A stretch of 34,077 bases of DNA from a virus (lineage: Duplodnaviria; Heunggongvirae; Uroviricota; Caudoviricetes), in IMG/VR virus record IMGVR_UViG_3300045836_000008. One strand, written 5' to 3'. The translations under genes and the position numbers were made by a program. Positions 21,545-21,687 of the stretch are shown here, piece after piece. Every line of letters starts with the position of its first letter. Within the stretch, counting starts at the first letter, position 1. Below the pieces are notes generated by a model that was given only the letters and a program-made list of their open reading frames with translations, had not been told where the DNA came from and searched no databases.

Positions 21545-21687
21545 CGGAGAACCTAGTCGTGTGAGAACGACTGCCCGCGTGGGAGCGGGAGAAGGTAATA
21601 AGTAGTGCCGAGTAGATTGCGGATAGTTACCGCGCGACGAAACAGCCTGAATAACTTCAGTTAGGTTCAATTCCTAGTCTCCGACCA
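21545..21687 (+). ncRNA. 143-nt tRNA-like RNA (acceptor stem, T-arm and CCA; no canonical D or anticodon arm)
   Basis: CGGAGA/TCTCCG+A+CCA; TTAGG-TTCAATT-CCTAG; four internal hairpins. Confidence 0.7.

Follow-up and report, generated by a model that had tools for sequence, protein, structure and literature searches.

The window considered here, which is the whole 34,077-nucleotide stretch of DNA that was analysed, comes from the genome of an uncultured soil T4-like phage. The phage is deep-branching: its gp43-type polymerase is 43% identical to the polymerases of cyanomyoviruses, and the same genome also encodes a gp44-like clamp loader and an SbcC-like ATPase. Public sequencing runs that contain the stretch are soil and rhizosphere metagenomes. 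The window holds a dense tRNA array; ARAGORN recognizes 11 tRNAs in the window and calls no tmRNA. A 143-nt RNA gene that is not among these 11, the candidate, lies within the array, separated by 24 nt from the preceding tRNA-Glu and by 8 nt from the following tRNA-Gln, and bears an encoded 3' ACCA like most of the array's tRNAs. Genes for Rnl1, Rnl2 and a kinase follow 4-7 kb downstream. The features of the locus and the parts of the candidate RNA are:

21096-21104, plus strand: TATAAATAG box at the head of the candidate's tRNA sub-array, 450 nt upstream of the candidate
21537-21872, plus strand: variable cassette (candidate, tRNA-Gln, rnaD-like RNA), missing as a block from close relatives
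21545-21687, plus strand: candidate RNA gene
21545-21550, plus strand: 5' strand of the acceptor stem, CGGAGA, with C1 paired to G72 (from sequence and covariation)
21554-21573, plus strand: HP1, a 7-bp hairpin (including a U.G pair) with loop GUGAGA, in the place of the D arm
21574-21589, plus strand: HP2, a 5-bp hairpin (CCCGC/GCGGG) with loop GUGGGA, in the place of the anticodon arm
21591-21658, plus strand: long arm (P2-P3-P4) of 68 nt in the place of the variable arm, a single rod with two internal loops
21591-21594 with 21655-21658, plus strand: P2 (GAAG/CUUC), invariant in all five copies
Between P2 and P3: internal loop 1, GUAAUAAGU opposite GAAUAA
21604-21610 with 21643-21648, plus strand: P3, 7 bp, all seven pairs changed on both sides
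Between P3 and P4: internal loop 2, AGUAGAU opposite CGACGAAA
Tip of the arm, plus strand: P4, GCGG-AUAGUUA-CCGC, 87% of alignment cells paired
21661-21677, plus strand: T-arm, UUAGG-UUCAAUU-CCUAG, with a UUCRAUU-type loop (from sequence)
21678-21683, plus strand: 3' strand of the acceptor stem, UCUCCG, followed by A73 at 21684 and the encoded CCA at 21685-21687 (from sequence)
21774-21866, plus strand: homologue, 93 nt long, of T4 rnaD (species 2 RNA); local alignment to T4 rnaD, p < 0.002

Homologues of the candidate were reached by way of a conserved neighbouring gene, which encodes a 334-aa protein. Five distinct copies are now in hand, all in related soil T4-like phages; the four outside the window are:

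L002, 7184-7328: IMG/VR contig of 168 kb
L003, 7012-7159: IMG/VR contig of 168 kb (the Logan contig L063 repeats this sequence)
L004, 7191-7326: IMG/VR contig of 168 kb
L059, 5765-5908: ENA contig of 177 kb

The neighbouring gene itself (20089-21093, plus strand) is always found just upstream of the candidate's tRNA sub-array; its product has a DADI (DxD-like) motif and no Pfam match of its own, and a few of its 690 homologues carry PF00535 (glycosyltransferase family 2). Other routes to further copies gave nothing more. A blastn search with positions 21400-21800 against 50,697 phage records matched the tRNA-Gln part and nothing else; pattern scans of IMG/VR and of GTDB genomes returned the three IMG/VR contigs already listed, together with chance matches rejected by the covariance model described below; a metagenome scan with the neighbouring protein found close relatives, all without the candidate RNA; and the same covariance model, run on the source contigs of L002 and L003, detected no further copy. 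The Rfam models, including the tRNA model RF00005, yield no family for the candidate either at gathering thresholds or at E ≤ 10, so that no known family accounts for what an earlier note on this DNA had described as a tRNA-like RNA. We found no paper describing this RNA, which is absent from Rfam.

The covariance-model search that the earlier note had proposed returns five homologues. The model, R1, was built from the window copy and L002 with the structure specified by hand; it scores the five copies at 177, 167, 94, 78 and 50 bits, the last three being the ones outside the training pair, and gives ordinary tRNAs less than about 21 bits. In the five-sequence alignment 93.9% of the cells in paired columns form standard pairs, with 17 of the 39 pairs changed on both sides, and seven helices are backed by pair counts. 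None of 500 shuffled controls reaches any of the pairing measures, and sliding the partners by 1-3 columns lets pairing fall to 37-46%. The alignment was fitted to R1, which biases these figures somewhat in favour of the structure, yet the gap to the controls is still large, and a plain MAFFT alignment suffices to reveal compensatory changes. Folding of the single sequence (z = -2.1, with 4 of 200 shuffles folding equally well) is weak evidence by itself. The copies differ by insertions and deletions of 1-2 nt, which is incompatible with a coding frame. In the long arm the helices drift, with compensatory changes in their pairs, around internal loops of conserved sequence; such a pattern is the mark of purifying selection on the fold. 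The candidate is thus a real, conserved RNA gene with its fold under selection.

The acceptor stem consists of 6 bp rather than 7; all six pairs are kept in the five copies, three of them with changes on both sides, and A73 and the CCA can be read directly in the window, as the earlier note had it. ACCA is present in four copies and reads ACUA in L004. HP1, which that note had recognized as AGTCGT-GTGAGA-ACGACT, stands with the addition of its U.G pair and covaries across the five copies: every cell is paired, four of its seven pairs have changed on both sides, and its loop conforms to GURNGA. The second hairpin that had been picked out, CCCGC-GTGGGA-GCGGG, stands as HP2; its six-nucleotide window loop is replaced by GUGGA (5 nt) in L002, L003 and L059 and by UGUGGUAU (8 nt) in L004. 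The canonical T-arm of the window is likewise as first read; across the copies its loop and G53-C61 pair are kept, with 76% of cells paired and a stem that is eroded in L002, L004 and L059. The L004 copy is without both CCA and the T-loop consensus. The division of base pairs between acceptor and T stems also varies, from 6/5 in the window to about 8/3 in L059; unusual acceptor/T splits are a property of allo-tRNAs (PMC5389517), which the candidate resembles in this respect.

It is between HP2 and the T-arm that the first reading of the RNA has had to be redrawn. What had been taken for a string of small hairpins is a five-helix junction with one 68-nt arm. The supposed purine-rich linker is the 5' strand of this arm, and the hairpin CUGA-AUAACU-UCAG, which cannot form in L003 (UUCUAAUAACUUCGCG), gives up its bases to P2 and P3. 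GCGG-AUAGUUA-CCGC survives, with partial support, as P4, at the tip; its stem and loop are replaced in L004 and L059, where AUAGUUA is not kept. Internal loop 1 has GGUAAUA(A) opposite GAAUAAC in all five copies, L004 having the variant GCGAAUAA opposite GAAUACC. In internal loop 2, (G)AGUA opposite GAAA is retained in four copies, and the AGUA/GAA juxtaposition resembles, at the level of sequence, a bulged-G (loop E) motif. Several other motifs suggested themselves by eye and were dropped: a hammerhead core, since L003 does not conserve its CUGA; a k-turn, for want of tandem G.A pairs beside a 3-nt bulge; and a kissing pair of AGUUA in the P4 loop with UAACU, since neither sequence varies and the latter overlaps P2. 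Pairing of the P4 loop with an mRNA target was also discarded, the matches being no more than expected by chance.

The five helices (acceptor, HP1, HP2, rod and T-arm) are joined by linkers of 3, 0, 1, 2 and 0 nt, and with the arm removed each copy measures 73-75 nt. In R1 alignments the D arms of true tRNAs fall on HP1 and their anticodon arms on HP2, and the rod is a deletion at their variable region; the candidate therefore has a class II layout. In class II tRNAs (Leu, Ser, Tyr and Sec), too, five helices meet at a single junction, and a long arm separates the anticodon arm from the T-arm. Their variable arms, however, are not known to exceed roughly 22 nt, far short of 68 nt, and the candidate further differs from them in a loop at the anticodon position that is not 7 nt long and in a D-position hairpin that has no constant GG in its 6-nt loop and, with its 7-bp stem, is not a D arm. 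A decoding tRNA has a 7-nt anticodon loop with U33. The corresponding loop of the candidate is 5, 6 or 8 nt long, never 7, so that the RNA cannot read codons: it is a non-decoding RNA. With the tRNA-like domain of tmRNA it has in common an acceptor, a T-arm, CCA and the want of a decoding anticodon; unlike tmRNA, it has G3-C70 in place of G3.U70, no tag frame and no pseudoknots, and the Rfam tmRNA model gives it 6.7 bits, from the T-loop alone. The earlier note had already set tmRNA aside on the first two of these grounds. Smith-Waterman comparisons of the candidate and of its arm with T4 rnaD, with the other ORF-free stretches of the window, with the tRNA-Ile D-loop module (16621-16814) and with a Ser-like RNA (18655-18780) detect no significant likeness; a 10-mer common to the candidate and 17245-17395 is part of a stem at the latter site.

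The candidate probably descends from tRNA-Pro(UGG). C1-G72 and A73 occur in all five copies, and so does UGG in the HP2 loop, preceded by G where a tRNA has U33. Among 171 phage tRNAs collected, all 14 tRNA-Pro have C at position 1, and in a first set of 111 the only other tRNAs starting with C were two tRNA-Ile. The main elements of bacterial proline identity are G72, A73, G35 and G36 (PMC9976931); C1-G72, A73 and the invariant UGG match this set and thus point to descent from tRNA-Pro(UGG). Position in the array argues the same way: following the 334-aa protein gene, the run of tRNAs opens with tRNA-Pro(UGG) in the window and in L014, L015, L059, L064, L065 and L066, and in three complete-looking contigs (G001-G003) that have no tRNA-Pro anywhere it is the candidate that occupies this slot. 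The window HP2 loop ends in UGGGA, as does the corresponding sequence of T4 tRNA-Pro, and the T-arm of the candidate is nearly identical to that of the window's own tRNA-Pro. Against these likenesses stand the loop of aberrant length, the missing D arm, the inserted 68-nt arm and the failure of tRNA finders to see the candidate. When the arm-less forms are compared with tRNAs, tRNA-Pro is best or tied best for three of the five copies, by small margins and with tRNA-Phe scoring as well; taken by itself, the HP2 stretch is not specific to tRNA-Pro. UGG could alternatively belong to a loop motif, GUGNGA, common to HP1 and HP2, and not be an anticodon relic at all. The near-identical loops GUGAGA and GUGGGA, on which the earlier note had laid stress, are indeed present; given their places at the D-arm and anticodon-arm positions, UGG fits a tRNA-Pro relic better than it does one half of a twin protein site. 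The window's tRNA-Pro(UGG) (21175-21252, plus strand), which has the same sequence in L014 and L015, itself carries C in place of U33 (loop UCUGGAC) and reaches only 35 bits under the Rfam tRNA model.

The rnaD-like RNA of the cassette is clearly homologous to its T4 counterpart. It shares with T4 rnaD the 5' hairpin, followed by AAGUCGUCGG, and the 3' ACGGCGC; no Rfam family matches it. Six further homologues were located in relatives:

L002, 7354-7445
L003, 7204-7289
L004, 8633-8733
L015, 1369-1460
L008, 429-528
L010, 551-650

Invariant GUCGUCG/CGGCGC pairing, with a covarying stem between the two strands, recurs in eight sequences of the family, members of which are also found in Karamvirus and Moonvirus phages. 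The rnaD family thus extends over both the Tevenvirinae and the deep soil lineage. Its homologue directly follows the candidate in L002, L003 and L059, and follows tRNA-Gln in the window.

The species 1 (rnaC) and species 2 RNAs of T4 have been known for some fifty years. No function has been assigned to either (PMC3014915, PMC9697503). The earlier note had compared the candidate with species 1 RNA, and in kind and neighbourhood the two are alike. Both are small RNAs of T4-like tRNA clusters (139 nt for rnaC) in which a frame of acceptor and T-arm, without an anticodon, encloses about 100 internal nucleotides in place of the normal arms; rnaC adjoins rnaD, and the candidate an rnaD homologue. 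For comparison, the T4 tRNA region and six diverged rnaC homologues provided a consensus fold and a second covariance model, R2 (seven Tevenvirinae). In this fold, a four-way junction, the 7-bp acceptor starts C1-G72; the D position is taken by an arm of ~75 nt, after which come an A-rich strand, a 10-bp arm (loop CGUCAA) and a T-arm. Under R2, rnaC of T4 and of Karamvirus reaches 154-157 bits, and no match to the candidate appears at E ≤ 10; conversely, R1 finds no match to T4 rnaC. Since neither model finds the other's RNA, homology to species 1 RNA is not established, and the candidate differs from rnaC in its five-way junction, in carrying its big arm at the variable rather than the D position, and in its 6-bp acceptor, A73 and CCA (rnaC has 7 bp, U73 and no encoded CCA).

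It might still be that the candidate is a true rnaC orthologue that has diverged beyond recognition and retains the role of rnaC, a proposition that we consider rather unlikely. It gains from the matching size and setting of the two RNAs, from the shared acceptor/T-arm frame with its C1-G72, G2-C71, G3-C70 start (found in the rnaC of T4 relatives as in the candidate), from the adjoining rnaD homologue in the window, L002, L003 and L059, and from a 9-mer, GCCGAGUAG, present in both. That 9-mer is marginal (p about 0.04-0.1) and sits in different structural contexts, the layouts disagree in junction and arms, the gene order is reversed (rnaD then rnaC in T4), the discriminator bases differ, and the covariance models fail in both directions although rnaD homology is plain over the same distance. 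What can be said is that a deep, uncultured T4-like branch keeps a recognizable rnaD beside a differently built, anticodon-less tRNA mimic under fold selection. In these phages, then, the pairing of rnaD with a tRNA-shaped RNA that does not decode seems to last, even as the architecture of that RNA is free to change; the candidate offers an origin that can be traced, probably to tRNA-Pro, and an arm that is compact and conserved, with its two internal loops.

Close relatives live without the whole cassette, which is therefore dispensable. L014 joins 21541 directly to 21873, in a soil DNA contig 21536 is followed at once by 21873 (at tRNA-Arg), and L015 has 21548-21767 replaced. The neighbours of the candidate vary, being tRNA-Glu and tRNA-Gln in the window and a protein gene and rnaD in L003. 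A 15-mer, GGATCGYAGTACATG, occurs at 21522-21536 and again at 22013-22027 (both plus strand; 0.09 expected by chance), just upstream of the candidate and of a second odd tRNA look-alike and exactly at the break points of the relatives; in L003 and L059 the 15-mer turns up again behind the candidate. It may mark a recombination joint or act as a signal for processing.

Three TATAAATAG boxes are present in the window (16505, 18805 and 21096; 0.02 expected by chance), all on the plus strand and each at the head of a sub-array, 20-80 nt ahead of its first tRNA. This sequence matches the consensus of T4 late promoters, and the boxes are putative promoters of that type. RNAs C and D of T4 are late RNAs (PMC9697503). 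Two RNA-library runs contain contigs from a relative that has 390 different letters in place of 21522-22028; these contigs span tRNA-Glu and 22028-22124, parts of the array other than the candidate. Farther along the array, between tRNA-Leu and tRNA-Tyr, lies a gene for an 82-aa protein with an Acb2/Tad1 hairpin domain (22575-22823, plus strand; Pfam E = 2.5e-18), to judge by its domain an anti-defence gene of the cyclic-nucleotide sponge type.

We lean, by no wide measure, towards a reading of the candidate as a tRNA-processed, non-decoding mimic, most likely derived from tRNA-Pro(UGG), with the long arm as a putative binding platform. The RNA would be transcribed together with the tRNA array from the late-promoter-like box upstream and excised like a tRNA, with RNase P cutting at C1 and the 3' ACCA already encoded. 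The features of an RNase P substrate envisaged in the earlier note are present: an acceptor/T-arm minihelix, the 3' ACCA and, in L002, L003 and L004, U at position -1 (the window has C). The tRNA body would confer processing, stability and recognition by tRNA-binding proteins or by enzymes that act on acceptor/T-arm minihelices. ProRS may be among the partners, since C1-G72, A73 and a GG corresponding to G35-G36, which are elements of bacterial proline identity, have been kept. The rod, with its two conserved internal loops, would be the working part, a platform for a protein or another RNA. Its most likely use, guessed from context, would be as a sponge or decoy for a host tRNA-handling factor, for instance a synthetase or a defence nuclease that targets tRNAs; the suggestion draws on the Acb2/Tad1 gene in the array, the RNA repair genes downstream and published cases of counter-defence by phage tRNAs, including against systems that cut the variable arm of tRNA-Tyr (PMC11555353, PMC13096335). 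A more specific version, in which a host synthetase (ProRS, or LeuRS by way of A73 and the class II shape) or a tRNA-cleaving nuclease recognizes the acceptor end and the GG loop, the candidate acting as a sponge that shields real tRNAs or as a charged non-ribosomal carrier, strikes us as unlikely; if true, it would provide the first function for any of the tRNA look-alikes that resemble T4 species 1 RNA.

Three other accounts of the RNA have to be weighed against a processed, non-decoding mimic. The candidate could be a working tRNA, decoding proline codons either as it stands or after the 68-nt arm has been cut out and the ends sealed by the phage RNA ligases. The proline-like anticodon triplet, C1-G72, A73 and CCA, the tRNA-Pro slot in three genomes that have no tRNA-Pro, the tRNA-like length that remains once the arm is removed, and Rnl1, Rnl2 and a kinase encoded nearby all speak for this, and yet we regard it as exceedingly improbable: the length of the HP2 loop and the G that takes the place of U33 are not remedied by removing the arm, HP1 does not qualify as a D arm, neither ARAGORN nor the Rfam tRNA model accepts the RNA, and the window and L059 already have a normal tRNA-Pro(UGG). 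Decay, on the other hand, would account for the absence of the cassette from close relatives, for the loss of CCA and T-loop consensus in L004 and for the eroded T stems of L002 and L059, if the candidate were a tRNA pseudogene with a junk insertion, a functionless passenger in the array. This is very unlikely: HP1 and P3 have been kept intact in every copy by compensatory changes, in all seven pairs of P3, and the internal loops of the arm are conserved amid drifting helices.

The remaining account would deny the candidate an existence of its own, making it a cis-acting element of the tRNA precursor (a processing guide, a stabilizer or transcription punctuation) instead of a free RNA. Its embedding in a polycistronic array and the GGATCGYAGTACATG 15-mers at the cassette edges would suit such a role. 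Complete tRNA-like ends of its own, including the encoded ACCA, and a form that is kept while the neighbours differ between genomes weigh so heavily on the other side that the chance of it seems minimal.

Two other unusual tRNA-like genes were encountered in these genomes. The second look-alike in the window (22030-22113, plus strand; about 6080-6163 in L059) is missed by ARAGORN and by the Rfam tRNA model. Its acceptor has 7 bp, with A73-CCA; its T-arm is good, its variable loop short and its D region oversized, and CUUAGAA (UAG, Leu) forms its anticodon-like loop; it is kept in L059 with compensatory changes in the acceptor and T stems, and the RNA-library contigs of the relative cover it. 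The other, at 3378-3450 of L004 (145970-146042 of G003), directly follows tRNA-Thr; ARAGORN calls it a tRNA with a four-base anticodon (agaa), and it may be of the frameshift type or degenerate.
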